Source of the DNA: Candidatus Yanofskybacteria bacterium RIFCSPLOWO2_01_FULL_39_28
GTDB taxonomy: Bacteria; Patescibacteriota; Minisyncoccia; 2-02-FULL-40-12; GWA2-44-9
Length of the DNA: 56,168 bases
Assembly (NCBI GenBank): GCA_001794635.1
Contig: MGKE01000001.1
Span: 1 to 56,168 of the forward strand
Direction of reading: 5' to 3'
The position numbers and the translations under genes are program-made. The number at the start of each line of letters is the position of its first letter. The stretch's first letter is position 1. The notes beneath the pieces are model-generated. The model was not told the DNA's origin and did no database searches. It saw only the letters and a list, made by a program, of their open reading frames with translations. This document shows, piece by piece, positions 14,343 through 36,204 of the stretch.

Positions 14343-14367
14343 TTTTAAATTATAGCACTAAGTCTTC

Positions 14368-14400
14368 AAACCAAAAACCCCTTTTCGGGGTTTTTGGTTT
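14368..14400 (-). terminator. Intrinsic terminator after the RRM gene
   Basis: AAACCAAAAACCCC-5nt-GGGGTTTTTGGTTT, perfect 14-bp stem. Confidence 0.8.
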
Positions 14401-14406
14401 AGAGGT

Positions 14407-14766
14407 TTAGTATTCCTCTCTTCGGCCTCCGCCGAATCCACCACGGCTTCCACCGAATCCACCACGGCTTCCACCGCTGCCACCACTACTGCCAAAGCTC
14501 CTTCTCGGAGGTCTGTCGGCCAACGGTCTGGCTTCATTGACTACAAGCTTTCTGCCGTCATGCTCTTGGCCATTGAATTTCTCAACAGCTGCATCAGCTT
14601 CTGCATCGTTTGCCATTTCGACAAAACCGAAGCCTCGTGATCGTCCAGACATTTTGTCTATGATCACATTAGCTGATGTGACTTCGCCAGCATCAGCAAA
14701 TAATTGCTTCAAGCTGTCGTCAGTAGCATTATAGGACAAATTACCTACATATAATTTCTTTGCCAC
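14407..14766 (-). CDS. RRM (RNP-1) RNA-binding protein with Gly/Arg-rich tail
   Basis: KLYVGNL (RNP2), RGFGFVEM (RNP1), VVNEARP, RGG tail; GTG start. Confidence 0.95.
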   Translation of the reverse strand: MAKKLYVGNLSYNATDDSLKQLFADAGEVTSANVIIDKMSGRSRGFGFVEMANDAEADAAVEKFNGQEHDGRKLVVNEARPLADRPPRRSFGSSGGSGGSRGGFGGSRGGFGGGRREEY

Positions 14767-14897: not shown

Positions 14898-15012
14898 TCG
14901 TTCCTACTAATTACTCCTTAGAGATACTTAGAGAAACACCCACGAGAAAACCTACACTGGCTATATGATAGCATGTATCGCTTCAAAATGCAAATCAGGC
15001 TATAATTATTTT

Positions 15013-15480
15013 ATGTTTAGAAAAATACTTGTCACAGTCATCATTGCTATCTTTCTTTTAGTCATTGCTTCTTTTTATTTCTTTAAAAATGAAAAACCAA
15101 CGTCAGAATACCCAATAACCAGACTTGAACAAAAAATAATTTATATAAATGGCCGGCCATTGAAAGTTGAGATAGCTGACGAACCACATGAACAATCACG
15201 CGGGTTATCTGGCAGAGAATTCTTGAAAGCAAACGAAGGAATGCTGTTTGTTTTTTCCCAATCGGACAAGCACAGCTTCTGGATGAAAGATATGAAATTT
15301 CCATTAGACATAATATGGATAGACGAAAAAAAGACAATGGTTGATATGGCAAAAAATTTATCTCCAGAAATATTTCCGGCAACATTTTCTCCTTCATCTC
15401 CAGTAAAATACGTCTTAGAAATCAATGCCGGCTGGTCAGACCGCCACAACATCAAAGTCGGGGATACGATATCATTTTAA
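15013..15480 (+). CDS. DUF192 family protein
   Basis: VEIAD, RGLSGR, GMLFVF, FWMKDMKFPLDIIWID, YVLEINAG; likely start ATG 15013. Confidence 0.9.
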   Translation: MFRKILVTVIIAIFLLVIASFYFFKNEKPTSEYPITRLEQKIIYINGRPLKVEIADEPHEQSRGLSGREFLKANEGMLFVFSQSDKHSFWMKDMKFPLDIIWIDEKKTMVDMAKNLSPEIFPATFSPSSPVKYVLEINAGWSDRHNIKVGDTISF

Positions 15481-15688
15481 TTTCCCGCTCTCGCTCTCCC
15501 CATTTCTCATCCGGTTCGCTCGTTAACAAATACGTCAATATTTCCTCATTTTCTTGAATAAAAATTGGGTCCCTTCGAGGGACTACATCCCAATTTTGTA
15601 TTCCACAGAAAATGTCAGAAATATCTTGTATTTGTAGTAAAGTCGCTCAAAGGATTCAAAATGGGAAGAGCTACGCGGTAAATTAAAA
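15475..15688. repeat. About 214-bp imperfect rod-like inverted-repeat element (MITE-like or structured RNA)
   Basis: About 30-bp imperfect terminal IRs plus five nested stems checked by eye. Confidence 0.75.
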
Positions 15689-15705
15689 ATAGCCAAGGTG
15701 GCTAT

Positions 15706-16038
15706 TTAAATCCAAGAACCAACTATTCTCTCTTCTCTACACCCTCTATCACGCACTATTTTACCAAAAGTTTTTTCTCTGCGATCACAAACAAATTCTA
15801 AAGTATCCACCTCTTCACCGGTCCTGTTATCGGTAAGATTCACGTAATAATCATGATGTTCCCAGCTTTTACTTTTCACTTCTTGCCTAGCCAGCTTTGC
15901 CGCTTTCCTAAAAATAAGTTTCTTGTTGGTTGACGCCGCAATAATTACTTCTGCACCTCTGTAATTACTGACGCTAACAAGTACATAATTTCTCATTCTT
16001 TCACCACAAGGAACTAGTTTATAAAAAGATATTAACAA
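15706..16038 (-). CDS. Hypothetical protein (about 100 aa)
   Basis: ORF only; possible start MRNYV at 15999. Confidence 0.6.
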   Translation of the reverse strand: MLISFYKLVPCGERMRNYVLVSVSNYRGAEVIIAASTNKKLIFRKAAKLARQEVKSKSWEHHDYYVNLTDNRTGEEVDTLEFVCDRREKTFGKIVRDRGCREERIVGSWI

Positions 16039-16115: not shown

Positions 16116-16334
16116 CTATTTTACTCCACTAGACCAATTCAGCCACTCTCTGATTTTTTTAAGAAGTTTCCTGCCTTCATGAGTAATACAAACCACGGCG
16201 ACACCAAGACCGATAATAACTATCGGATAAAACAACGACCAAAAACTACCTGGGAAATAAAGTATCCCTAAATTTCTTAATAAAAAAGCTAGACCAAAAA
16301 TAACAACAAATACTCCGAATATATACATCCCCAC
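16116..16334 (-). CDS. Small membrane protein, DUF5668/LiaI-LiaF-like TM region
   Basis: G-x-x-x-V-x-x-GL-x-FLL-x-NLG ... W-x-x-x-x-P-x-x-II-x-x-G. Confidence 0.6.
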   Translation of the reverse strand: MGMYIFGVFVVIFGLAFLLRNLGILYFPGSFWSLFYPIVIIGLGVAVVCITHEGRKLLKKIREWLNWSSGVK

Positions 16335-16469
16335 ACTCAGTTAAGATATCTCCCTCCTGTGATTCAAGAAAAATATCTAAACCGATAATTAAAGATAAAT
16401 TTTGGTTTCCCGCACAGTCACTAATAAATACAAATCACAGATCCTAACTGAGTGTGGGGATACATATAT
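16321..16469. repeat. Family B repeat arms enclosing a spacer of about 95 bp
   Basis: ATCCCCACACTCAGTTA and TAACTGAGTGTGGGGAT; inner stem CTGTGATT/AATCACAG. Confidence 0.75.
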
Positions 16470-16508
16470 TTTCATTATACAACACTTTCTAGCCAAAAAC
16501 CACAACAC

Positions 16509-22336: not shown

Positions 22337-23006
22337 AACTTTTGTAACTATTTTTTCCCAAAACTATCCTGCTTAATTGCTTTACCGCTTTCTTTACTTG
22401 TTGACGGTGATGTTTTTCTTTCAAAAAGTGCCAAGCCGGAGGAATAACTGAAGTAAAAACAATGGCCAAAATAATTGGTATAAGATACTGGTCAATATTC
22501 GGTATAGCGCTACCAAGAAAATAACCAGCTAATGGTACTCCTATTCCCCAAGCAAGGCCGCCGATAAAATTATAAAAGAAAAAATCTGAATATTTCATAG
22601 TACCAACTCCGGCCACAATCGGAGCAAAAGTTCTGACAATGGGCATAAAACGGGCCAGAATTAGGGTTTTGCCTCCGTATTTTTTATAATATTCACTGGC
22701 CCTAACGAGATGATCTTTGTGAAATAATAGCGAGTCTTCTCTTTTAAAAATAGCCGGCCCGACTTTCCTGCCAAAAGCATAGCCGAAGTTATCTCCCAAA
22801 ACAGCGGCGCTAAATGTAATAATAATCAAAGGCAAAACATGCAAATAGTCCTGAGCTGCCAAGAATCCAGCCGTAAATAAGAGTGAGTCCCCTGGTAAGA
22901 AAAATCCGATAAATAAACCTGATTCAGCAAAAACAATCAAAAACAAACCAATATATCCGGCCGCTTTTATTAAAGCAATTAAATCAATACCCAATAATTG
23001 ATCCAT
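22326..23006 (-). CDS. dedA: DedA family membrane protein
   Basis: FAESGL, LPGDSLLF, LARFMP-x-VRTF. Confidence 0.92.
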   Translation of the reverse strand: MDQLLGIDLIALIKAAGYIGLFLIVFAESGLFIGFFLPGDSLLFTAGFLAAQDYLHVLPLIIITFSAAVLGDNFGYAFGRKVGPAIFKREDSLLFHKDHLVRASEYYKKYGGKTLILARFMPIVRTFAPIVAGVGTMKYSDFFFYNFIGGLAWGIGVPLAGYFLGSAIPNIDQYLIPIILAIVFTSVIPPAWHFLKEKHHRQQVKKAVKQLSRIVLGKNSYKSFRN

Positions 23007-23035
23007 GTAAAAGTTATATTCTATCCTATACGATA

Positions 23036-25345
23036 CTATACCAACTTATTTTTGTTGCGATTTAGAAAGACCGCAATAAGTATAACAGCTAACAACGCAA
23101 TAAGCCATCGCCAGCTAAACCAACTTAATAATACACCGATAGAGGCCAAAGACTTAATCTCCGGTGAAACTTCGGGTGAAAGTTCTAATGAATCAGATTG
23201 CTTGACAGAATTTTGTTCAGAACCAGAGTCCTGGTCTACACCTGACCCAGCAATTGCTTTTACAATTGTTATATTATCATCAACGGGTCTTGCTATCTGT
23301 ATTGGGGTTAGGATTGGGGTCGGTATCAGAATCGGTGTCAAAACTGGAGATGGTGACGGAGAAGCAAGAGGGCCATTAATAAATTCTCCGATCCAGCCTC
23401 CTCCCCATCCACCTCCACCGCCAGAAGAACTGCCTTCTTCATTATCTCCCCCATTATCGCTTGAGTCATTACCTGAGTTGCTTGTGGTAGCATAATAGGA
23501 AGCCTTAGTCGCCTGGAAGGTACAAATACCTTCGGTAACAGTACAAGTTGCCGGCGATACAATGCCATCACTAGTCCAGTCACCAGTACCGGTTATTGAA
23601 CGCACCACTTCCAGAGACTGGTCATTAAATTCAGTACCGACAAAAATATTAACTGTTATTGGGATACTGAACTTCAATCCAACATTTGGAATCCCCCATT
23701 GGAGAGCGCCATTAATCACAATGCCTGAAGCAAGACCAGCCAAAGAACTAAGATCAACATCAAAAGAAGTAATTTGACCGAAATCAAACGAGCTATCGTC
23801 AACACGAGAAATAACAAGGTCTTTTTCTAAAATAATTTTACCATATGAAGTGCTGGAAGCTTTTATCTCAACGTTCTGAGCCAGAGTAATTTGACTTGTT
23901 GAAGAAGCTGTTGTTCCTTCATACAGAACAAACACATTCTCATCAAGCAGACTTTGAAAATCAAGAGGGACGGCCTCAATTTTTTCTATTGTGTAAGAAA
24001 ATGAAGCTACCGTCGAAACTGATTCCTCATCTGTGCAACCAATAGCGATTATAGTTTTAGTTGAAAATATTGATATCGGTGAATCATAGAGATCGCCAGA
24101 GGAACAGTTGGGTGTGGTATCGTCGGTGGTAAAATTAATATAGTTAGAGTTGGTGGACGAGAGCTCAATCTTTTGGATTGAAAAATAACTTCCAGCTAGT
24201 GGACTTGCTATGGGAGCCAGCGGTAACGGTTCCAAATCACCCCAAACAACCACATCATCTATAAAAATTTCGTCGTTATCAGAATTACCATTAATTTGGA
24301 ACTTAAAACTTAAGCTTGAGACATTGTTTGCTCCGTCTAGGGGTCCAAAAACAATTGGCTCATAGAGAGTATCGTCTGAGTTCCCTGTTTCGCCATTTAT
24401 TGTTTCCAGAGAAGTCCAGTTTTCACCATTGTTGGCAGAATAATACGACTGAAATGATTCATCGGCCTCAAGACTATCAACTCTTCGGGCATATCTGATT
24501 TTAATATTCTTATAGTCATAGGTGTCCAGAGATTTTGTCAATATGCCATCATTTTTAAGACTGATCCCCTGCCCTTTTTCCTCACCCAAATCTTCACCGT
24601 TATCATCTGTCCAAATTTTAGTTACATCCAAATCGTCCTCACTATAGCCAGCATCGTCTTCAACAATACTTACATTTTCTCCAAAAACCCAGCTAGTGGA
24701 GGCCAGGTTACTTTCAAAACCATGATAAAATAGTGCCGGATTCTCTCCTGTTACCGTTAGATTATCAACTCCCACCCTGTCATTGGCATGATTGCCGTTA
24801 ACATAAAATCTCAAGGTGAGTTTTGTGTTTCTATCTGTATTTTCTATCGTAAATTCAATATTTGAATGAGGCTGGCTCGCCGTTAGTGTTTCCAGGACTG
24901 TAAAAGTTCCTCCGTCCAGAGAATATTCTGACTTAAATTCATCGCCGTCGCTAAAACCTTCTATGGTCCTGGAATACATGACCTTAAGTTCGGTATAGCC
25001 AAAAGTTGCTATGTGCCTTTCGGCCCCATCATCAGGATTAGACCCACTCGCGCCTTCAAGAAGCATTCCTTTTGTTCCATCAAGGCCGACAATAAAACTA
25101 TCTGGTGAGTCAGTTGTTTTTCTACTGGGAGCCGATGAACCGCTAAAGGTTACCCAGCCGTTTTTCAAACCGCTTGAATCCTGGTCAAAAGTATCAGAAA
25201 AAATGGCGATTGGTTCCGCATTAGCAATTGGTATAAACCAGTAAAAAATATGAGGCAAGTCAATGTTACTGGACGAGAATAAAACTAGAAAAAACCAGAC
25301 CCAAAACCTTGCTATTTTGTAGCTCTGAACCATAATATTACTCAA
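23036..25345 (-). CDS. Large surface protein: duplicated beta domains, chitobiase/beta-hexosaminidase C-terminal-like domain, low-complexity stalk, C-terminal TM anchor
   Basis: N-terminal hydrophobic segment; internal repeat; P-x-ASP-x-AGSY...FTTD-x-T-x-P motif; S/G and P/T linkers; TM plus basic tail. Confidence 0.75.
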   Translation of the reverse strand: MSNIMVQSYKIARFWVWFFLVLFSSSNIDLPHIFYWFIPIANAEPIAIFSDTFDQDSSGLKNGWVTFSGSSAPSRKTTDSPDSFIVGLDGTKGMLLEGASGSNPDDGAERHIATFGYTELKVMYSRTIEGFSDGDEFKSEYSLDGGTFTVLETLTASQPHSNIEFTIENTDRNTKLTLRFYVNGNHANDRVGVDNLTVTGENPALFYHGFESNLASTSWVFGENVSIVEDDAGYSEDDLDVTKIWTDDNGEDLGEEKGQGISLKNDGILTKSLDTYDYKNIKIRYARRVDSLEADESFQSYYSANNGENWTSLETINGETGNSDDTLYEPIVFGPLDGANNVSSLSFKFQINGNSDNDEIFIDDVVVWGDLEPLPLAPIASPLAGSYFSIQKIELSSTNSNYINFTTDDTTPNCSSGDLYDSPISIFSTKTIIAIGCTDEESVSTVASFSYTIEKIEAVPLDFQSLLDENVFVLYEGTTASSTSQITLAQNVEIKASSTSYGKIILEKDLVISRVDDSSFDFGQITSFDVDLSSLAGLASGIVINGALQWGIPNVGLKFSIPITVNIFVGTEFNDQSLEVVRSITGTGDWTSDGIVSPATCTVTEGICTFQATKASYYATTSNSGNDSSDNGGDNEEGSSSGGGGGWGGGWIGEFINGPLASPSPSPVLTPILIPTPILTPIQIARPVDDNITIVKAIAGSGVDQDSGSEQNSVKQSDSLELSPEVSPEIKSLASIGVLLSWFSWRWLIALLAVILIAVFLNRNKNKLV

Positions 25346-26680: not shown

Positions 26681-26910
26681 TTTAATCCCAAGGCTTCATT
26701 TATTTTAATCCTATCAAATCCTACTATAAACTTGCCATTAATTTCAAGTATGGGGGCAACGACCATGCCCGTCTTGGACATGACCAATTGTTGAGCCGCC
26801 GGATTACCAACCAAACCTATTTCCTCGTATTTAACGTTTTTGGAGGTAAAATATTCTTTGGCCATCTTGCAATAAGCACAGATTGGTGTTGTATAAATTT
26901 TCACAATCAT
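26677..26910 (-). CDS. Glutaredoxin-like protein
   Basis: CAYC, VVAPILEING, IVGFD. Confidence 0.88.
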   Translation of the reverse strand: MIVKIYTTPICAYCKMAKEYFTSKNVKYEEIGLVGNPAAQQLVMSKTGMVVAPILEINGKFIVGFDRIKINEALGLK

Positions 26911-28241
26911 AGTTTTTTTAATATTTCTCTGGTTTCCCTTTTGTAATCCTCAACCTTCGGCTGATCAAAAGCGTTAACCCCTAATAATTTGGCTAAAAAC
27001 ATGGTTTCAATCATTTTTAATTGTAAATACTGTCCCAGAGTATCCTCGGTAATTTCGTGCATGACAATTTCGGAATACGGCAGGCCGTTTTTATAAAAAG
27101 CGATTTTTACCCCTTCAAAGATAGCATTCGTTATGTCAACTATTTTTTTACCACTAATATCAGGCGCCAGTTCCGGCAAAAAAAGCTCTGACGGAACCAC
27201 CAGTGAATTATCTTTCTGTGAAGCATAAACAAACTGTGTAAATTTATCCCGGGGCCCAGCAAAAAACAACTGGGCCATCGGATGCAAATCAGTAGAACCG
27301 ATTGAAACAATCGGAGTAATTCCAGTATTAACTTTCTGATTATTAAGATCATACTCCTTGCCGATGCTTTCAGCCATCAACTGGGTATACCATTTACCAA
27401 GAGATTTCAACTCCGGATTGAAATAAAAATTGTTATAAATTTTGATTCCCTGCTTATAGTGGGAATAAGTTAAAATAGCCGAAGCTAAAGCCGGATTCTG
27501 ATAACTATCGTGGTTAAGACATTTCTGGACCACCTCTGAAGCTCCTTCTAAAAACCTCTCAATATTAAAATTAGCTAAGCCAAGCGGAAAAAGTCCGACT
27601 GGAGACAAAACAGAATAACGACCGCTGACTTTTTGAGGAATCTCAAGAACATCTATTTTTTTATCCTCGGCCAACTGCCATAATTTTGTGCCTTTGGCAG
27701 TAGTAAACATGAGTCGGTCTTTTGCACTGTCGCCAAAGCGTTTCTTTAAAACATCGTAAATCACCTCAAAGTTAGCAACTGTTTCCGTAGTTTGGCCAGA
27801 TTTGCTAACCATGTTAACCAAAATCTCTTCCGGATTTTTGACTTGATTATTTAAAAAATCAACAATTTGAGCTAAAAGAGGTGGTGAAACGGTATCAGCA
27901 AATATCATTTTAGGGTCGTCTTCATGGATAAAAACATCCAGACGCCCCCTCAAAGCTCGATACAAAGCCATCGTACCAAGATTAGAACCGCCAATCCCAA
28001 CAACAACAACATATTTAAGTTCTTTGTTTCTTCTTTCTTTTACTTTATCAAACAAAACATTCTTGGATTTTTCATCCAAAGACAAGTTAATGGACGACTC
28101 CGGAGTCTCATAGTCCATTGACTTATAAATTTTGCCAAGGTAGTCAATATAATCTCTTAACTTTTCTTTGCCTGCACCCAACTCATCATCTCCGACTCTG
28201 GCGGTATTTTGATAAACTAATTCAATGTCTTTGTGTGCCAT
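26907..28241 (-). CDS. pgi: Glucose-6-phosphate isomerase
   Basis: VGIGGSNLG, SKSGQT, GRYSVLS, QLMAESIGK, FDQP-x-VE-x-YK. Confidence 0.95.
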   Translation of the reverse strand: MAHKDIELVYQNTARVGDDELGAGKEKLRDYIDYLGKIYKSMDYETPESSINLSLDEKSKNVLFDKVKERRNKELKYVVVVGIGGSNLGTMALYRALRGRLDVFIHEDDPKMIFADTVSPPLLAQIVDFLNNQVKNPEEILVNMVSKSGQTTETVANFEVIYDVLKKRFGDSAKDRLMFTTAKGTKLWQLAEDKKIDVLEIPQKVSGRYSVLSPVGLFPLGLANFNIERFLEGASEVVQKCLNHDSYQNPALASAILTYSHYKQGIKIYNNFYFNPELKSLGKWYTQLMAESIGKEYDLNNQKVNTGITPIVSIGSTDLHPMAQLFFAGPRDKFTQFVYASQKDNSLVVPSELFLPELAPDISGKKIVDITNAIFEGVKIAFYKNGLPYSEIVMHEITEDTLGQYLQLKMIETMFLAKLLGVNAFDQPKVEDYKRETREILKKL

Positions 28242-28269: not shown

Positions 28270-28665
28270 TTAACTTTTTTTAAAATCTAAGGAAAGGGAG
28301 TTGATACAATATCTTTGACCGCCTTTTTCTTTTGGCCCGTCAGGAAAAACATGGCCTAAGTGCGAACCGCAATTTTTGCATAAAACTTCTGTCCGAATCA
28401 TGCCGTGACTTTTGTCTTCTTTTAATTCCACAAGTTCTCTGTTTACCGGTTCTGTAAAACTCGGCCAGCCGGTACCTGAATCAAATTTTGTATCTGATGA
28501 GAAAAGTTCCTGTCCGCAAGCGGCACAAACATACATGCCAGTTTCGTGATGCTTGTAATATTTACCCGTAAAAGCCGCCTCGGTCCCAGCTTTCCTTAAG
28601 ACCTTATACTGCTCCGGTGTCAGACACGTCTTCCACTCTTCTTCGGTTAGATTTGATTTATCCAT
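28270..28665 (-). CDS. msrB: Peptide methionine-(R)-sulfoxide reductase
   Basis: [30 protein letters not shown]. Confidence 0.96.
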
Positions 28666-28715
28666 TAAAAGAATTATAACATAAATAAAGCCCAGTTATT
28701 TGAAAGCGAGTCTAT

Positions 28716-29474
28716 ATGGAGATTTGGAGCCATCGTTCTAGGGTTAATTTGATTGACTTTGGCAATAGTTTGGCTGGCTTAAGAATGTTAAGGCAAATGA
28801 GAGTGGACGGGGTAGAAGCGGATGTATCGTTTTCAAAAGACAAAGAAATAATAATTTACCACCCGGGAAGCATAAAGCCAGATTTGGTAACCCGTACCTG
28901 GCAAGAAATAATTGCAACCAAGTTACCAATCATAAACTTAACTGATTTGCTTGAATTTATGATTTCTAAACCAGGAATGAAATGTTGCCTTGATATCAAA
29001 CAAAACTCAAAAGAATTGGTCAAAAAAGTGATGGAATTGGTAACTTTTTACGATCTTGAAGACCAAATTTATTTAACTGCTTTTCAGAAAAGAATATCTT
29101 TCCTTCAAATTGAATCAGACAAAATGCTTTTAGAATATGCCAAAGAAATAAATCCAGATATACAGACGCATATTATTGCCACCTGGCCAGTCAATTTGCC
29201 TCAATTGGTTAAAATATACCGACCAAACATGATATCTATTGGCTGGCTCAAAGAACCATTTATTATCAAGGTAATAAGTAGGTCGTTATTTGAGTTGGTC
29301 ACCCTAACAACCGATCTTAGAACTCAAATCGTGGAAGTATCTGAAACAGGAGTTAAGGTATTAGGCGGAGTTGTAAATAGTCCGGACGATATGAATTATT
29401 TTTCTGAATTGGGGGTAGGTGGAATAATGACCGACAGTCCCTATGAGGCAATGCAACTTTTCAAAAAAAATTAA
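28716..29474 (+). CDS. Glycerophosphodiester phosphodiesterase family protein
   Basis: SHR, VEADV, H-x-x-x, LDIK, terminal GIMTD-x-P. Confidence 0.8.
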   Translation: MEIWSHRSRVNLIDFGNSLAGLRMLRQMRVDGVEADVSFSKDKEIIIYHPGSIKPDLVTRTWQEIIATKLPIINLTDLLEFMISKPGMKCCLDIKQNSKELVKKVMELVTFYDLEDQIYLTAFQKRISFLQIESDKMLLEYAKEINPDIQTHIIATWPVNLPQLVKIYRPNMISIGWLKEPFIIKVISRSLFELVTLTTDLRTQIVEVSETGVKVLGGVVNSPDDMNYFSELGVGGIMTDSPYEAMQLFKKN

Positions 29475-30863: not shown

Positions 30864-32362
30864 TATTGGTTGTCTTTATGAAACCTAAGAGCCAGTTCAA
30901 AAAGTTTGACATATTCTTTTGCCGAGTGTTCCCAAGAAAAATCTTCGGCCATAGCTCTTTTCATAAGTTTTTCCCACCCCTTTTTCTGACGATACAATTC
31001 GCTAGCCCGAACAATTGCAATAGTCAAAGAAAAGGGATCATATTTTTCAAAAACAAAACCAGTACCTTCTTCTGTTTCGGGGCTGAAATCTGTGACCGAA
31101 TCGGCTAACCCGCCAACCTTTCTTACAATCGGGATACAGCCATATCTCATGGCCTCCATCTGAACAAGCCCGGATGGTTCAAAGCGGGATGGAATCAAAA
31201 CCGCATCGGCTCCACCAAAAATCATCCTAGGCAAACGAGCATCAAAAGAAAAATGCGTTCCAACTCTATCAGGATACTTGGCTTTTAATTCTTCAAAGTA
31301 ACTGCGATATCCTGGATTGCCTTCACCAACAACAATAAACTGGAAATTGATATTTTCCATCAATGGACCAAGGGCTTGAATAACAAGATCAAAGCCCTTT
31401 TGTTCATCCATTCGGCTAACCATGCCAACAACAAAAACGTCTCCCTTGGTCGCGGGTAAACCGAATTGTTTCTGTAGAGCTACCTGATTTTCTAACCGCT
31501 TATCCAATGATTTAACGGAGTAATTAGCAATGAGGTCTTTGTCTGTCTCCGGATCCAAAGATTCCGTGTCAATACCGTTTAAAATACCGAACAGACGAGA
31601 TTTGCGTTCATTCAAAAGTTTATCCAATCCTTCACCAAATTCTTCTGTAAGTATTTCACGGGCATATGTCGGGGAAACAGTATTAATTACATCGGCATAA
31701 AATATGCCACGACGCATACCGTTAAGTTTTTTTGTTCGTTCATCAAAAAAATCTGTAATTGGAGCTTGACCAGCATCAAAATCCATCTCAGAAACAAATT
31801 TAGGATCAAACAAACCCTGATATCTTAAATTGTGAATTGAAAAAATTATCGGAATCTTTGAAAGAATGGGGTCTTCTTTATAGTCGGTATGAACAAGATT
31901 TGGAATAAAACCTGACTGCCAGTCAGAGGCAATAACCAAATCGGGTTTCCAGTCTGATTTTTTAACAAATTCTAAAGCAGCCTTAGAAAGCAAAATCCAG
32001 CGAACCGTATCATCAGAATAACCATAAACATTGGCTCGCTTCTCGTAATATTCCATATTTTCTAAAAAATAATTAACCCAGCCATCACTTCCATCATAAC
32101 GAAGAATGTTAGAGACCAGTATTCCAAAGGGGTCTCGATCGCCGCTTTCAACTTTTAACTCGTGGATTTCTGTTTTAAGAGGATATTTATCAATATCTAT
32201 GGTGGCATATTTGGGAATTAAAACCCGAGCATCATGGCCAAGATTACGCAAAGCCCTAGGTAAAGAGTTCATTACCTCTCCCAAACCACCAACTTTCACA
32301 AAAGGAGCCGCTTCAGAAGCAACAAAAAGAATTTTTAGAGATTTTTTATTAGGTTGAAACAT
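30863..32362 (-). CDS. glgA: Glycogen synthase (GT5)
   Basis: SEAAPFVKVGGLG, TVSPTYA, GILNGID, SRM-x-EQKG, PSRFEP-x-GLVQ. Confidence 0.95.
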   Translation of the reverse strand: MFQPNKKSLKILFVASEAAPFVKVGGLGEVMNSLPRALRNLGHDARVLIPKYATIDIDKYPLKTEIHELKVESGDRDPFGILVSNILRYDGSDGWVNYFLENMEYYEKRANVYGYSDDTVRWILLSKAALEFVKKSDWKPDLVIASDWQSGFIPNLVHTDYKEDPILSKIPIIFSIHNLRYQGLFDPKFVSEMDFDAGQAPITDFFDERTKKLNGMRRGIFYADVINTVSPTYAREILTEEFGEGLDKLLNERKSRLFGILNGIDTESLDPETDKDLIANYSVKSLDKRLENQVALQKQFGLPATKGDVFVVGMVSRMDEQKGFDLVIQALGPLMENINFQFIVVGEGNPGYRSYFEELKAKYPDRVGTHFSFDARLPRMIFGGADAVLIPSRFEPSGLVQMEAMRYGCIPIVRKVGGLADSVTDFSPETEEGTGFVFEKYDPFSLTIAIVRASELYRQKKGWEKLMKRAMAEDFSWEHSAKEYVKLFELALRFHKDNQ

Positions 32363-32383: not shown

Positions 32384-33796
32384 ATGAGAAAGTTAATTCA
32401 ACTTATCCCCGCCGGCAGTGTAACTCTTGGCCTAACTACTTTGGTATCATACATATTTGGCCTTTTACGTGATAGAGTTTTTGCCCAAACATTTGGCGCA
32501 TCCCGCGCCCTTGATGCCTATAACGCCGCTTTTTTAATCCCGGATCTTTTGTTTAATATTCTGATAGCCAGCGGCATTGCCGCGGCTTTTGTGCCAATTT
32601 TTACTGAACTTTTTTACCATTCTTCGCAGAAGAATGGTAACCCTTCCGAAGCTTTAGCGAAGGAGGGTAACTATTTCAGTCACAAACGCTCTTACGATTA
32701 TGTCAATTCGGTTATCTCCGCCGCTATCACTACAATGGCCATAGCGGCCTTACTGCTTGCTTTTTTTGCCGAATCAGTAAGTGTTCTGGTTGCCCCGGGT
32801 TTTAATCTGGAAGAAAGATTGATGGTCGCCAAAATATTAAGAATCCTTGCTCTATCTCCTATTTTATTTGGTATATCAAATGCTTTAGGAGCGCTACTTG
32901 TAGCCAAAAGAAGATTTCTTTTTTATGGCCTTTCTCCTATTCTTTACAATCTTGGCATTATAGGCGGCGCTTTGTTTCTATCGCCGACATTTGGAATTAT
33001 GGGCGTAGCCATCGGAACAGTCATTGGAGCTTTATTCCATCTTTTAAGCCGGGCCATTGATGCTTTCTTGTCGGGTTTTAGTTTTAAACCAAACTTTAAA
33101 TTCAAAACTGGTGAATTTAAAAAAACAATTAAGTTAATGATTCCTAAAATGTTCGGCCATCCGGTAGAATTGGCAATGTTCTGGGGATTTACCGTTATTG
33201 CCTCAAGTCTCGGAACCGGTTCAATAGCTATTCTTAGTTTTGCCCGCAACTTCCAAAGTGTTCCGGTAAGTCTGATCGGCATAACTTTTTCAACCACCTC
33301 TTTCCCGATCATGGCCAAAGCTATCGCCGACCATTCTCTCAAAGATTTCAAGAAAACTTTAAAAAACTCGTTCTGGCTCATTCTTGGCGGAAGCACCTTG
33401 GCAGCAATTATTACCTTTTTAATTCGTGAACCTCTAATAAGAATTGTTCTTGGCGGCGGTGCTTTTAGTGAAGAAGCTATTTTAAAAACAGCCGCAATGC
33501 TGGGAATGTTTACTTTGGCTATGCCCACAGAATCTCTCCGCCATCTTTTCGCCAGAGCTTTTTACGCAACAAAAAACACGATTATCCCTGTCGTGTTAAG
33601 CATCTTAGGTCTTGCCATTGCTATTGGCGGAGGATATCTACTTTCTCCAAGATTCGGAATTTTATCTATTCCCATCTCTTTTTCCTTAGCTAGTTTTATT
33701 GAGTTAATCTTTCTAATAACTCTCCTTCCCTACCAGCTCAAAAAACTCCCCTCCTCTCCACAAATTGATTTGGAACTAGATCCGCATCAAAACTAA
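32384..33796 (+). CDS. murJ: Lipid II flippase MurJ/MviN
   Basis: GLLRDR, DAYNAAF-x-IPD, AAFVPIF, RAFYA; likely start ATG 32384. Confidence 0.9.
   Translation: MRKLIQLIPAGSVTLGLTTLVSYIFGLLRDRVFAQTFGASRALDAYNAAFLIPDLLFNILIASGIAAAFVPIFTELFYHSSQKNGNPSEALAKEGNYFSHKRSYDYVNSVISAAITTMAIAALLLAFFAESVSVLVAPGFNLEERLMVAKILRILALSPILFGISNALGALLVAKRRFLFYGLSPILYNLGIIGGALFLSPTFGIMGVAIGTVIGALFHLLSRAIDAFLSGFSFKPNFKFKTGEFKKTIKLMIPKMFGHPVELAMFWGFTVIASSLGTGSIAILSFARNFQSVPVSLIGITFSTTSFPIMAKAIADHSLKDFKKTLKNSFWLILGGSTLAAIITFLIREPLIRIVLGGGAFSEEAILKTAAMLGMFTLAMPTESLRHLFARAFYATKNTIIPVVLSILGLAIAIGGGYLLSPRFGILSIPISFSLASFIELIFLITLLPYQLKKLPSSPQIDLELDPHQN
32639..32668. repeat. Family A hairpin in frame within murJ
   Basis: CCTTCC-GAA-GCTTTAGC-GAA-GGAGG, encoding PSEALAKEG. 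Confidence 0.75.
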
Positions 33797-34560
33797 CCAA
33801 CAATTATTACAACTTTTCTCCCATTATCTATATCCCCGTTATTCCAGTCATGGATAGCATTCATTATAACTGATGAAGAGTAGATAAAGTCAGAGCCCCT
33901 TTTAGTACCAGGGTCATTAGTAATAAAGTTACCCTCTTTGGTGTAACCCTTAATGACTAACATGTGGTATAAAGGCCCCGGCTGGCGGAAATATGGATTA
34001 CCTAACTGCTGACCGGCAGCGGGAATAATAACAGCTTTCTTTTCGGCCAATGCTTTTTTAATATCATTTTCGGTCGGATTATAAACCAGCCTGATTTTAT
34101 CTATTTTGTAAAATTCTCTAAGTATTGTTGCTGTTTCTTCGGCAGAAGTATCTTTGTGATAACCGAATCTTTGTTCTTCAAATAATTTTATTTCAAGCAT
34201 TTTTTGATCGGCAAAATCAGGACCAGCAATAGTTGTGCCAAAAACATAACTCGCCGCCATCAAAACCGATGCTTCTTCGCAAAAATCACCATAAGGATCT
34301 TCCCAATTAGCATAGGGTGCCTGAACTGTAAATGGGACGGCCAAGTTAATTTCTACCGGCATTGAACCAATATCAGTAATTAACTCTGGTTCGGCTGGAA
34401 TAGTTTTTGATGTCACAGTAGATTTGGGTGATTTATAAACCTGAGCTGTCGGTATCGGTTCTTTAATAACCTCCGGCTTGTTTTTATAAAAAACAAAAAA
34501 CGCCCCTATCCCCAGAAAAACAACAACAAAAACAACGATCTTAAACCAATTTTTACTCAT
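33793..34560 (-). CDS. C39-like peptidase, membrane anchored
   Basis: VPF-x-x-QAP, CEEAS, HMLVIKGY, NDPG. Confidence 0.85.
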   Translation of the reverse strand: MSKNWFKIVVFVVVFLGIGAFFVFYKNKPEVIKEPIPTAQVYKSPKSTVTSKTIPAEPELITDIGSMPVEINLAVPFTVQAPYANWEDPYGDFCEEASVLMAASYVFGTTIAGPDFADQKMLEIKLFEEQRFGYHKDTSAEETATILREFYKIDKIRLVYNPTENDIKKALAEKKAVIIPAAGQQLGNPYFRQPGPLYHMLVIKGYTKEGNFITNDPGTKRGSDFIYSSSVIMNAIHDWNNGDIDNGRKVVIIVG

Positions 34561-34662
34561 AGTATTCTTTAATATAGCCGAATTTTAAAAATTTGACAAT
34601 TCATAAAAAAAGTATAAAGTCTAATATCAGAACCTTAACTAAATGACCGAGGTAGTCTTTCC

Positions 34663-36204
34663 ATGACTTGGCCAAAGCCGTTAGGTATTCGTCTCTGTAA
34701 AACTGAATCTCCAGCCTTGGTCTTATTAAAAGCTGACGGCACCAGAATTGAATATTCTTGGGAACAGTATAACACCAAATCTCTTCAGTCCCTTCATACT
34801 CTTAAAACTGAAGGGGTCATGCCGGGAGATTTTATAGCAGTTATTGCAACCAACCTGCCTGAATCTTTCTTCGTAATGTCAGCAATAATTATGGCCGGTG
34901 CGATAATTGTTCCTATAAATTTTCCGGTCGTAAAAGAACCGGGTTACAATGAACTAAAATCAATTTTAAAGGATTGCCAACCTAAATTAGTAGCAACCAA
35001 CGAGTGTCTGATTAAATACCTGCTTGGTTCGGGAATAGGATGTATGAGTTTTGAGGACATTATAAATCTAGGCGAAGGAGAAACTGAACAAGTTACTTCT
35101 TTTGTTAATGACATTCAGGAAGATAAGCTCATGGTTATGCCTTATACTTCAGGAACTACTGGAAACCCGAAGGGAGTCATGCTCAATTATAAGAACATCT
35201 CTAACCGGGTAAAAGCAGTATCAAGAGTATTCGGAATTACGCAGAAGGAACGGCTATTGTCATATCTTCCCCTAGGCCACATCTCTGAACTAGTAGCTAC
35301 CTTTTTTGGACAATTAGACAATGGTTACACTGTTTATTTCACTGAACATATTAAAGAAATAACAGAAAACAGGGAAAACTTCAGAAAAGCGTTCCCTAAA
35401 ATCTTAGCTGATGTGAAACCGACAATATTCCTTGCTGTCCCTAAAATCTGGTCCAATTTAAGAATTGGAGTAGAGAAACAGATTAAACCAATCCCAAACT
35501 TCCTCTTTCAAATCAGTTTTATTAAAAACTTTGTTGCTAACCGAATTAAATCCAAACTCGGTCTTGATAACACCAGATTTTTTATAAGTGCCAGTGCCCG
35601 ACTTTTTCCTGAAGATAAAAAATTTTTCGCTGGACTGGGTATTAATATAAACGATATTTATGGCCAGACTGAAACAGCTGGACCGATTATTATGGACGGC
35701 CAGATAATCGGCGACGCTAATGTGTTTGCCGGTGAAGACAGCGAGATAACTGTTGCCGGAAACTGCGTAATGATGGGTTACTACAAAATTGACAAAACAT
35801 TTGTGAATGGGTATGGCACTGGAGACAGGGGTTCATGGCAATCTGGTCGTGTTCTATTCCAAGGAAGAATTAAGGATGGGTTCAAACTTTCCCAAGGAGA
35901 ATTTGTGTCTGAAGCCAAAATTGAATTACTAGAAAATGAAATTAGAAAAATTGATGGAGTTCAAGAAGTTATTGTCTGCGGTGAAAGCAAGCCCTATATG
36001 GTAGCCCTGATATTCAGTCCCGACCACCAATCAGGATATCTAAAAGAGGACATCCAAAAAGCCCTGACTTTAATCAGCGAAGGGATCTATAAGGTTAAAA
36101 AATTTATTCTGCTTAATCCGTCCCAACTGGAACTAACTTCAACTCTAAAAGTCAAAAGGAGTAAAATAATCCAAAAGTTCCAACAACAAATTGATCAACT
36201 CTAA
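34663..36204 (+). CDS. AMP-dependent long-chain acyl-CoA synthetase-like ligase
   Basis: YTSGTTGNPKG, SYLPL-x-H, YGQTE, TGD-x-G, GR-x-KD; promoter TTGACA 34593 with TAAAGT. Confidence 0.88.
   Translation: MTWPKPLGIRLCKTESPALVLLKADGTRIEYSWEQYNTKSLQSLHTLKTEGVMPGDFIAVIATNLPESFFVMSAIIMAGAIIVPINFPVVKEPGYNELKSILKDCQPKLVATNECLIKYLLGSGIGCMSFEDIINLGEGETEQVTSFVNDIQEDKLMVMPYTSGTTGNPKGVMLNYKNISNRVKAVSRVFGITQKERLLSYLPLGHISELVATFFGQLDNGYTVYFTEHIKEITENRENFRKAFPKILADVKPTIFLAVPKIWSNLRIGVEKQIKPIPNFLFQISFIKNFVANRIKSKLGLDNTRFFISASARLFPEDKKFFAGLGININDIYGQTETAGPIIMDGQIIGDANVFAGEDSEITVAGNCVMMGYYKIDKTFVNGYGTGDRGSWQSGRVLFQGRIKDGFKLSQGEFVSEAKIELLENEIRKIDGVQEVIVCGESKPYMVALIFSPDHQSGYLKEDIQKALTLISEGIYKVKKFILLNPSQLELTSTLKVKRSKIIQKFQQQIDQL

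Follow-up and report, generated by a model that had tools for sequence, protein, structure and literature searches.

The question raised by this locus is why nearly the whole gap between two convergent stop codons should be occupied by one very long hairpin. The locus lies in a stretch of 56,168 nucleotides (the window: contig MGKE01000001.1, positions 1 to 56,168 of the forward strand, assembly GCA_001794635.1, from Candidatus Yanofskybacteria bacterium RIFCSPLOWO2_01_FULL_39_28), and the hairpin is a single rod of 214 bases at 15475-15688, between the stop codons of a DUF192 gene and of an orphan open reading frame (ORF) of 110 amino acids. The original prediction, made from the letters alone, left the choice between a non-autonomous element like a MITE (miniature inverted-repeat transposable element) and an unannotated structured non-coding RNA. 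The answer reached here is that the hairpin belongs, as a single copy among many, to an uncatalogued family of strand-specific hairpin repeats, limited to one order of the ultra-small bacteria of the Candidate Phyla Radiation (CPR)/Patescibacteria. Coordinates without a contig label are window positions, 'sense' is the window's minus strand, and G000 is the present genome, other G numbers being those of relatives.

The letters at 15475-15688 match their earlier description, and the arms named there (TTTTAATTTCCCGC/GCGGTAAATTAAAA, GCTCTCCCC/GGGAAGAGC, ACAAATAC/GTATTTGT, ATATTTC/GAAATAT, CATTTTCT/AGAAAATG, AAAATTGGG/CCCAATTTT and the apex GTCCC-TTCGA-GGGAC) are all paired in the minimum free energy (MFE) fold. 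The plus strand, folded as RNA, has an MFE of −71.8 kcal/mol, compared with a mean of −36.5 ± 4.0 for 200 dinucleotide shuffles, none of which is as good (z −8.9). The minus strand forms the mirror rod at −89.5 kcal/mol (z −11.2). With DNA parameters the values are −43.1 kcal/mol for plus and −49.5 kcal/mol for minus (z −8.6 and −9.9). The gap of 18 kcal/mol (17.7) by which the RNA fold of the minus strand exceeds that of the plus strand was not visible when the hairpin was first described. The statement that it fills the entire intergenic region is nearly right, but 15687-15707 is left over as a separate small hairpin.

Six full rods, and truncated ones besides, are present in the 815-kb assembly of the genome (15 contigs, 86% complete). 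A DNA search found the family in five or six of 6 same-genus genomes, with up to 13 matches, and in a single genus next to it; the highest number of copies in a sister genome is 13-14. A covariance model built from 18 copies (219 positions, 66 pairs) has, at E≤1e-8, full-length matches in 22 of 105 genomes of the order, patchily distributed over three of its families. Outside the order it has no match in the genomes that were sampled (301 for the class, the order included), which doubles as a control for its specificity. The distant matches retain ACAAAU.../...AUUUGU, the UGAGC...GCGA(G)AAC loop and the apex AAUUGGGAyGUAGUCCC. An exact-pattern scan of 185,579 species representatives returned three sister metagenome-assembled genomes (MAGs) only. 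No Rfam 15 family reaches its gathering threshold in the window, and the rod is thus a member of no described family; for seven loci searched at E≤1 the only Rfam matches are spurious long-hairpin miRNA models, far below their thresholds. Rods are about 200-290 nt long, with 1-14 copies per genome where present. The window's hairpin is clearly neither single-copy nor without homologues, and, as follows, it does not lack covariation.

A rod is a long imperfect hairpin. Its conserved parts are the inner stems, the two purine-rich internal loops and, often, an apex like a terminator, while the two basal stems, P1 and P2, vary between copies yet remain paired. P1, of about 8-13 bp, is different at every locus. 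Its arms pair with their own partner at −7.6 kcal/mol but at only −3.0 between different copies, and no P1 is common to two copies. Internal loop 1, at the foot of P2, is found in about 19 of the 33 copies collected, with the region fully paired in about 14. GTAG occurs there in 11 of the 33 and, together with close variants (YAG; GCAG, ATAG and similar), in about two thirds. P2 (helix 2) has changed on both sides in 15 of 18 pairs, with 96% of cells paired. Internal loop 2 is a 5x5 loop with the consensus AUUUyGAAUCC-UUUGA-GC ... GC-GAACC-GGAUGAGAAAU, carrying an invariant G and A on both of its sides (G42/A43 and G173/A174 in alignment A2), and the block on its UUUGA side is kept in order-level relatives. 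Such a loop could hold tandem (sheared) G.A pairs, and loop 1 may resemble loop-E/S-turn motifs. Inside loop 2 there are three AU-rich stems conserved in sequence. The apex beyond them scores as an intrinsic terminator on the sense strand (site 15583-15569, minus strand), whereas the 214-nt rod as a whole has no U tract after it on either strand. The apex is exchangeable: other modules take its place in the copies on contigs C6 and C13 of the present genome, in L028 and in further copies, which have either a different apex or extra nested GC hairpins (CCGCCAGCTGGCGG). (Among the G002 copies L027, L028, L029, L030, L031 and L032, the apex or the 5′ arm contains small GC hairpins, TCCGCCAGCTGGCGGA and CCGCCATCCGCCAACTGGCGGAGGCGG, as if one hairpin had nested in another; the window has no instance of the motif.)

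That the pairing itself is maintained is evident from a consensus structure made of the pairs present in at least half of the individual MFE folds. Standard pairs fill 92.1% of its 1180 cells, compared with 79.6% in shuffles and 41-53% when partners are slid, and there are changes on both sides in 34 of 66 pairs; none of 500 shuffles reaches any of these measures. The compensatory variation is strong, though the arms of a DNA palindrome can co-evolve without any RNA.

The two strands are not equivalent. In all 33 copies it is the sense strand that has the more stable fold, the margin being 2 to 28 kcal/mol. The MFE folds have 176 G.U pairs to 10 single A.C mismatches, a count that favours G.U by construction; the fixed consensus structure gives 64 G.U to 16 A.C cells, which is 22 to 8 pair positions, and the fast-changing basal stems 26 G.U to 2 A.C. 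The bias is the same in five of six order-level relatives, the sixth being a tie. Two mutational origins for it were considered and rejected. A replication-strand bias is ruled out by mixed orientation, since local GC skew makes the sense strand G-rich at 11 loci and C-rich at 16, and transcription-linked deamination of the non-template strand of the abutting gene would, on our reasoning, give the opposite polarity. Being independent of replication strand and opposite to what deamination would yield, the polarity implies that the selected form is one strand, single-stranded. As to which nucleic acid that strand would be, the asymmetry of the window copy amounts to 17.7 kcal/mol under RNA parameters and to only 6.4 under those for DNA, yet G.T is the mildest mismatch in DNA too; the polarity would suit RNA and single-stranded DNA (ssDNA) alike, and by itself cannot separate them.

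Copies are always intergenic, and at a particular kind of place. In 16 of 33 copies a convergent gene has its stop codon at or within the sense 3′ end of the rod, at distances of −18 to +3 nt. A terminator hairpin with its T run is directly upstream on the sense side in 10 of 33 by a crude, anchored scan, which undercounts relative to inspection by eye (about 13-15), and in the mirror position in 3 of 33. The usual order is therefore gene A followed by its terminator, the rod, and then the stop codon of convergent gene B, as in the window, where the TAA of the DUF192 gene (15478-15480) is inside the outer arm P1 and the gene runs towards the sense strand of the rod. Transcription of gene B would yield the antisense strand, the poorer folder of the two, and this counts against a role in the 3′ untranslated region of gene B. 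No conserved neighbour gene was found beside the 33 copies, the upstream neighbours often being small ORFs without homologues; no conserved upstream motif or promoter was found either, and orientation relative to genes is mixed. (Within a coding region of the window, at 32639-32668, a hairpin ACCCTTCCGAAG...CGAAGGAGGGT resembles the terminator-like hairpins, CCCTTCCGAAG...CGAAGGAGGGG plus T run, that are just upstream of rods L035 and L042 in sister genomes. Some of the 'terminators' adjacent to rods may themselves be members of a hairpin repeat family.)

Copy number and positions differ between species, and there are signs of recent copying. Three G005 loci (L038, L039 and L040) are 100% identical over 178-185 nt and have unrelated flanks. 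Their identity ends at or near the foot of P2, in one pair where the GUA motif has its 5′ end. The unit that they share has its start in P2 or slightly ahead of it and its end 7-12 nt beyond the 3′ motif, inside the 3′ strand of P2 or slightly after it. Two G002 loci (L028 and L029), again with unrelated flanks, are 99% identical over 230 nt including loop 1. Copies at orthologous sites (the same downstream gene in two species) are only 63-76% identical, while the best matches to paralogues or to copies in other genomes are 90-94% identical. Coding DNA of G002 and G005, in the one syntenic region compared, is 69-74% identical. The window's own site, scored across relatives by presence or absence of a rod at the level of the site, has plain terminator hairpins in G001 and G005 and a different long hairpin in G006. 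Decay and fusion products are also seen: truncated rods, some of them joined to a repeat of a second family. Within the present genome the two most similar rods are 93% identical, and as no copy there exceeds this the window copy is probably an immobile relic.

The reading that we favour, at a probability of roughly 0.55, is that the rods are a non-autonomous selfish repeat with limits set by structure, that they spread or are homogenised in the form of a folded single strand, and that the host tolerates them at gene ends close to terminators. The limits would be given by the foot of a stem and not by terminal sequences; a folded single strand of one polarity would be what is copied or homogenised; and rods would settle at terminator-proximal gene ends, where the harm they do would be small. 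HUH/Y1 transposases of the kind associated with repetitive extragenic palindromes (RAYT-like) are candidate movers. Once in place, the rod would probably act as a very strong hairpin or terminator-like barrier between convergent genes.

Several observations weigh against this reading. No enzyme is tied to the rods: no rod is within 1.5 kb of the RAYT-like genes, each of which is flanked by perfect palindromes of its own, and the present genome is without a RAYT-like gene. Direct-repeat target-site duplications are absent, the flanks of L038-L040 and of L028/L029 being inverted repeats. Nor is there a nucleotide-level empty site, with same-genus DUF192 orthologues only 46-54% identical and the best metagenome relative 53%. 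A rod stands at the same DUF192 site, in the same orientation, on a metagenome contig with RRM-DUF192 synteny (53% protein identity). Conservation between species is higher for rods than for the coding DNA compared, and for the internal loops it extends across the order; both facts could instead mean a host function. To explain transfer between species there is no match in viral contigs (exact pattern) or in phage or plasmid records. Short rod-less palindromes of the recurrent P1 type (TTCNGCGTA...TACGCNGAA) do not occur in the genus, which leaves insertion into pre-existing hairpins unproven and not separable from gene conversion between old copies; such conversion could explain the nested boundaries of identity equally well.

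The foremost competitor, possible but to our minds well short of an even chance, is a family of functional structured RNAs, transcribed in the sense direction and selected locus by locus, serving as protein-binding scaffolds (by way of the two purine loops), as substrates of RNase III, or as terminators, insulators or 3′-end stabilisers. The compensatory variation already described is what this would lead one to see, as are the preference for G.U over A.C, the larger asymmetry under RNA parameters and the copy at the same DUF192 site in a distant relative. Its best arguments are two. One is the order-wide conservation of asymmetric loops, with GA/GA invariant in an otherwise variable loop and the loop motifs and apex kept in other families of the order; the other is that rods 90-94% identical between species are more conserved than the coding DNA compared (about 70%). 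A host RNA fits less well with the lack of a conserved promoter or neighbour, the mixed orientation to flanking genes, the patchy presence (22 of 105 genomes, with copy number 0 to 14), the truncated and fused copies, and a likeness between orthologous-site copies that is lower than that between paralogues. In about half of the copies it is the antisense strand that the abutting gene would transcribe, a terminator often precedes the rod on the sense side, and the terminator-like apex would itself stop transcripts before the descending arm is made. Selfish repeat and functional RNA are not mutually exclusive, and each of the two labels first proposed catches part of the case. 'MITE-like' suits the multi-copy state and the favoured reading as a non-autonomous repeat, but there is no target-site duplication and no longer relative with the same ends and a transposase; 'structured ncRNA' has covariation and strand polarity on its side, but not promoter, neighbour, orientation or the likeness of orthologous copies.

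A bolder proposal, which we put forward only tentatively and hold to be improbable as it stands, takes the rods together with repeat families that share their base (below) as order-specific, structure-delimited single-stranded elements. A dedicated protein would read the tandem-G.A and loop-E/S-turn-like loops, with copying from the stem foot into other hairpins or gene ends, free of terminal sequences and target duplication; if true, this would be a mechanism of mobility or homogenisation so far undescribed. In the other version of the proposal the rods would form a new class of RNA that marks gene boundaries throughout the genome. Genomes of CPR/Patescibacteria are among the most streamlined (here about 0.8-1 Mb), yet six rods and about 32 copies of a second, three-way-junction repeat have been kept. 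Whether the rods are a selfish element with an unrecognised, structure-defined way of spreading or a new structured RNA at gene boundaries, the answer bears on how repeats are tolerated or used in reduced genomes and on the design of terminators and insulators in as-yet-uncultured organisms. On the practical side, rods cause contig breaks and unannotated 'intergenic' blocks in CPR MAGs and merit a model of the Rfam/Dfam type.

More specific, and unlikely, is the idea that the rods are giant GTAG-tagged members of the repetitive extragenic palindrome (REP) class or its REPIN form, the RAYT (TnpA-REP, Y1/HUH) recognising GTAG at the 5′ foot of P2 and cutting and pasting the ssDNA hairpin. REPs are dispersed intergenic palindromes, and most of them follow a gene or lie where two genes converge (Di Nocera et al. 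2013, PMC3733652; Corneloup et al. 2021, PMC8266576), with an unpaired GTAG-type (or CGTC) tag at the foot of the hairpin, which is read as folded ssDNA (PMC3733652, PMC8266576). Rods are likewise dispersed, non-coding, intergenic and at gene ends, and would have one active strand. About two thirds of them have GTAG or a close variant directly 5′ of P2, opposite an unpaired GAGA; the identical unit in G005 is bounded at or near P2, and the polarity would suit a top-strand ssDNA substrate. Genes for Y1/HUH proteins (Pfam Y1_Tnp) are found in sister genomes, six in G001, five in G002, five in G005 and three in G003, but not in the present genome (86% complete), G004 or G006. Most of the proteins are about 220 amino acids long, with REP_Tyr_transpos as the best NCBIfam match at 39-66 bits, below its cut-off of 80. 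Such genes are thus present in three of the four rod-rich sister genomes, including both with identical copies (G002 and G005). This coincidence fits a mobility model, weakly, there being seven genomes only.

The differences from REPs are substantial. A REP is GC-rich and only 20-40 bp long, a genome has tens to hundreds of them, and their RAYT gene is flanked by the repeats (the REPtron); rods, at 200-290 nt, are 5-10 times longer, AT-rich and in 1-14 copies, and flank no RAYT-like gene. The present genome, G004 and G006 carry rods without such a gene, and G003 has three genes with at most one rod. The tag is missing from about a third of copies and the internal loop from about 14 of 33. Orientation has no replication-strand bias, unlike in ssDNA elements of the IS200/IS605 type. 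A RAYT partnership was rejected, as the genes of the sister genomes are unlinked to rods. By analogy REP/RAYT is the closest mechanistic parallel; membership fails on size, copy number and linkage. (At L136, L139, L141 and L143, in G002, G005 and G003, RAYT-like genes lie between long perfect palindromes of their own, for instance TTACAAGGGTCATCCTTGTA...TACAAGGATGACCCTTGTAA. The arrangement is REPtron-like, and the palindromes are unrelated to rods.)

The search for other movers gave little. TnpB (TnpB/IS605) was not found in the genus, and no ORF lies between half-copies in the present genome. No autonomous element with the same ends and a transposase was found, partial matches being truncations or fusions; DDE transposases were not searched for. 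Reverse transcriptase (RT) genes are present in five of seven genomes of the genus, with a distribution similar to that of Y1, the nearest about 3-4 kb from rods, and a retron or group II link was rejected as they are not adjacent. (In G002, contig C7 has an RT gene at 22901-23506 and a rod at 26780-27039; in G001, contig C9 has an RT gene at 28357-28965, a rod at 31966-32230 and a Y1 gene at 34554-34835; in the present genome, C14 has an RT fragment at 72862-73101, a rod at 68259-68476 and three-way-junction modules at 72015-72319. RT genes, Y1 genes and hairpin repeats clustered within a few kb in three genomes may mark variable islands.)

We think it very unlikely that the rods are attC-like recombination sites bounding small gene cassettes, the folded single strand being the substrate of a site-specific recombinase that brings in the adjacent orphan gene. 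The upstream neighbour on the sense side is indeed often an ORF of 80-150 amino acids without homologues at other copies, even where the downstream gene is orthologous, and in the window the 110-aa ORF is on the same strand as the rod and is bracketed beyond by an inverted-repeat element at 16318-16470. Cassette arrays are absent, however, the upstream ORF is on the same strand in only 12 of the 28 copies having one, the small ORFs are crudely called and perhaps not genes, and no linked recombinase was seen, though integrases were not searched for. A long terminator of the usual kind, or a DNA palindrome that arose by chance or through replication and has neither family nor selection, would explain the position between convergent genes and the terminator-like apex, but is contradicted by the multi-copy state, conserved core, asymmetric loops, polarity and order-wide occurrence.

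Rods join a broader group of lineage-restricted, structured, gene-less intergenic repeats that includes REP/REPIN, bcr1, ERIC and Correia (PMC3184786). The bcr1 repeats of the Bacillus cereus group, about 155-310 bp, are lineage-restricted and intergenic and show compensatory changes (Delihas 2011, PMC3184786); all of this, and a distribution not conserved between relatives, a double-stranded structure kept at RNA level and the lack of a known transposase of their own, they have in common with rods. They differ in their 5-bp direct repeats, in being known to be transcribed, where rods have been read from DNA alone, and in forming a cruciform-like pair of stem-loops and not a single rod. ERIC/IRU, Correia (CREE/NEMIS) and RUP, bacterial MITEs of about 100-160 bp which can be co-transcribed and fold in RNA, are like rods imperfect intergenic palindromes with internal insertions that generate size variants (PMC3184786). 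The terminal inverted repeats of these elements are fixed in sequence, and target duplications (TA or other) and sometimes a related insertion sequence go with them, whereas the outer stem of rods is locus-specific. Short direct repeats (5 bp for bcr1, TA for ERIC) are lacking, a check for target-site duplication having turned up only the inverted repeats that flank recent copies, and there are no family-wide terminal inverted repeats: the whole rod is inverted, but P1 differs between loci and is outside the copied unit. Compared with the known repeat that imitates terminators at gene ends, the rod is twice as long, has conserved internal loops and is terminator-like at the apex only.

For group II introns of bacterial class C, the insertion site is immediately downstream of an intrinsic terminator hairpin, and the intron takes the terminator's orientation. 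Roughly a third to half of rods have a like arrangement, but rods are without intron domains, splice-site motifs or an RT ORF.

Table. Parts of the rod, its copies in the present genome, and adjoining features of the window
Feature	Position	Strand	Remarks
Rod, full copy	15475..15688	−	From folds; covariance-model match 15472-15689 (−), 224.8 bits
P1 5′ arm (UUUUAAUUUACCGC)	15675..15688	−	Locus-specific outer stem; U-rich part continues the U-tract of the upstream terminator
P1 3′ arm (GCGGGAAAUUAAAA)	15475..15488	−	Contains complement of DUF192 stop codon
Internal loop 1, 5′ side GUA (C-GUA-G; with next base GUAG/YAG)	15672..15674	−	5′ foot of P2
Internal loop 1, 3′ side GAGA (C-GAGA-G)	15489..15492	−	Duplex analysis of 33 copies
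P2 5′ strand (GCUCUUCCC), pyrimidine-rich	15663..15671	−	9-bp hypervariable stem, always compensated
P2 3′ strand (GGGGAGAGC), purine-rich	15493..15501	−	Covariation, duplex analysis
Conserved block AUCC-UUUGA-GC, sense 5′ side	15645..15655	−	Unpaired UUUGA 15647-15651
Conserved block GC-GAACC-GGAU, sense 3′ side	15509..15519	−	Unpaired GAACC 15513-15517
Apex module AAAAUUGGG / CCCAAUUUU	15561..15597	−	GC hairpin 15569-15583, 5-nt bulge 15584-15588, then U run
DUF192 gene, complete	14965..15480	+	Pfam DUF192 1.4e-34, matched to model end
Small terminator-like hairpin and T run of upstream ORF	15687..15707	−	Directly 5′ of rod on sense strand
Orphan 110-aa ORF, TTG start	15706..16038	−	Upstream of rod on sense strand; real gene uncertain
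Truncated second rod, 3′ half only, near contig start	128..168	+	nhmmer E 0.014; ...CGAACCGGAUGAUAAAU-UAAAGAGG-CGAGAG-GGAUUAU
Full copies in present genome	C1:15475-15688; C5:16774-16998; C5:23649-23871; C14:68259-68476; C6:10364-10653; C13:14431-14686

The truncated rod near the contig start (Table) keeps its parts in the order GAACCGGAUGAUAAAU, P2′, CGAGAG, P1′. A second repeat, without a copy in the window, has about 32 copies in the 815 kb of the present genome (for example C11:367-469, C5:7551-7616 and C14:72201-72264). Its core of about 65 nt, GGGAUUUACGGA-hairpin-GAGUAAAAGrC-hairpin-...GUGCCC, is apparently a three-way junction, sits at the tip of long, copy-specific, compensated stems and matches nothing in Rfam. 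Fusions of this repeat with truncated rods are present at C15:1563, C11:473 and C14:11868. At two sites of the same genome the rod-type 'handle' (GCGUAG and a variable stem ... variable stem and CGARAGC) carries other cargo, namely a GC-richer structure of 142 nt at C8:~14360-14501 (minus strand) and a three-way-junction module at C14:11903-12075. The GUA/GAGA handle seems common to several repeat families.

As for the surroundings of the rod, the small hairpin directly upstream overlaps its last two bases and the stop codon of the 110-aa ORF. This ORF belongs to no Pfam or NCBIfam family and has a homologue in none of 61 other genomes of the family. No tRNA or tmRNA gene was found in the window. 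On the DUF192 side there is a gene for an RRM-type RNA-binding protein (14358-14766, minus strand) whose Gly-rich tail is repetitive, with tandem repeats of 21 nt at 14423-14485; metagenome relative L054 has this gene in synteny with the DUF192 gene. On the other side the inverted-repeat element is a separate one of 153 nt, with 30-nt inverted ends (90% complementary), a 93-nt spacer and a better fold on the minus strand; together with the rod it brackets the orphan ORF, and one diverged second copy is present at C14:154269-154409.

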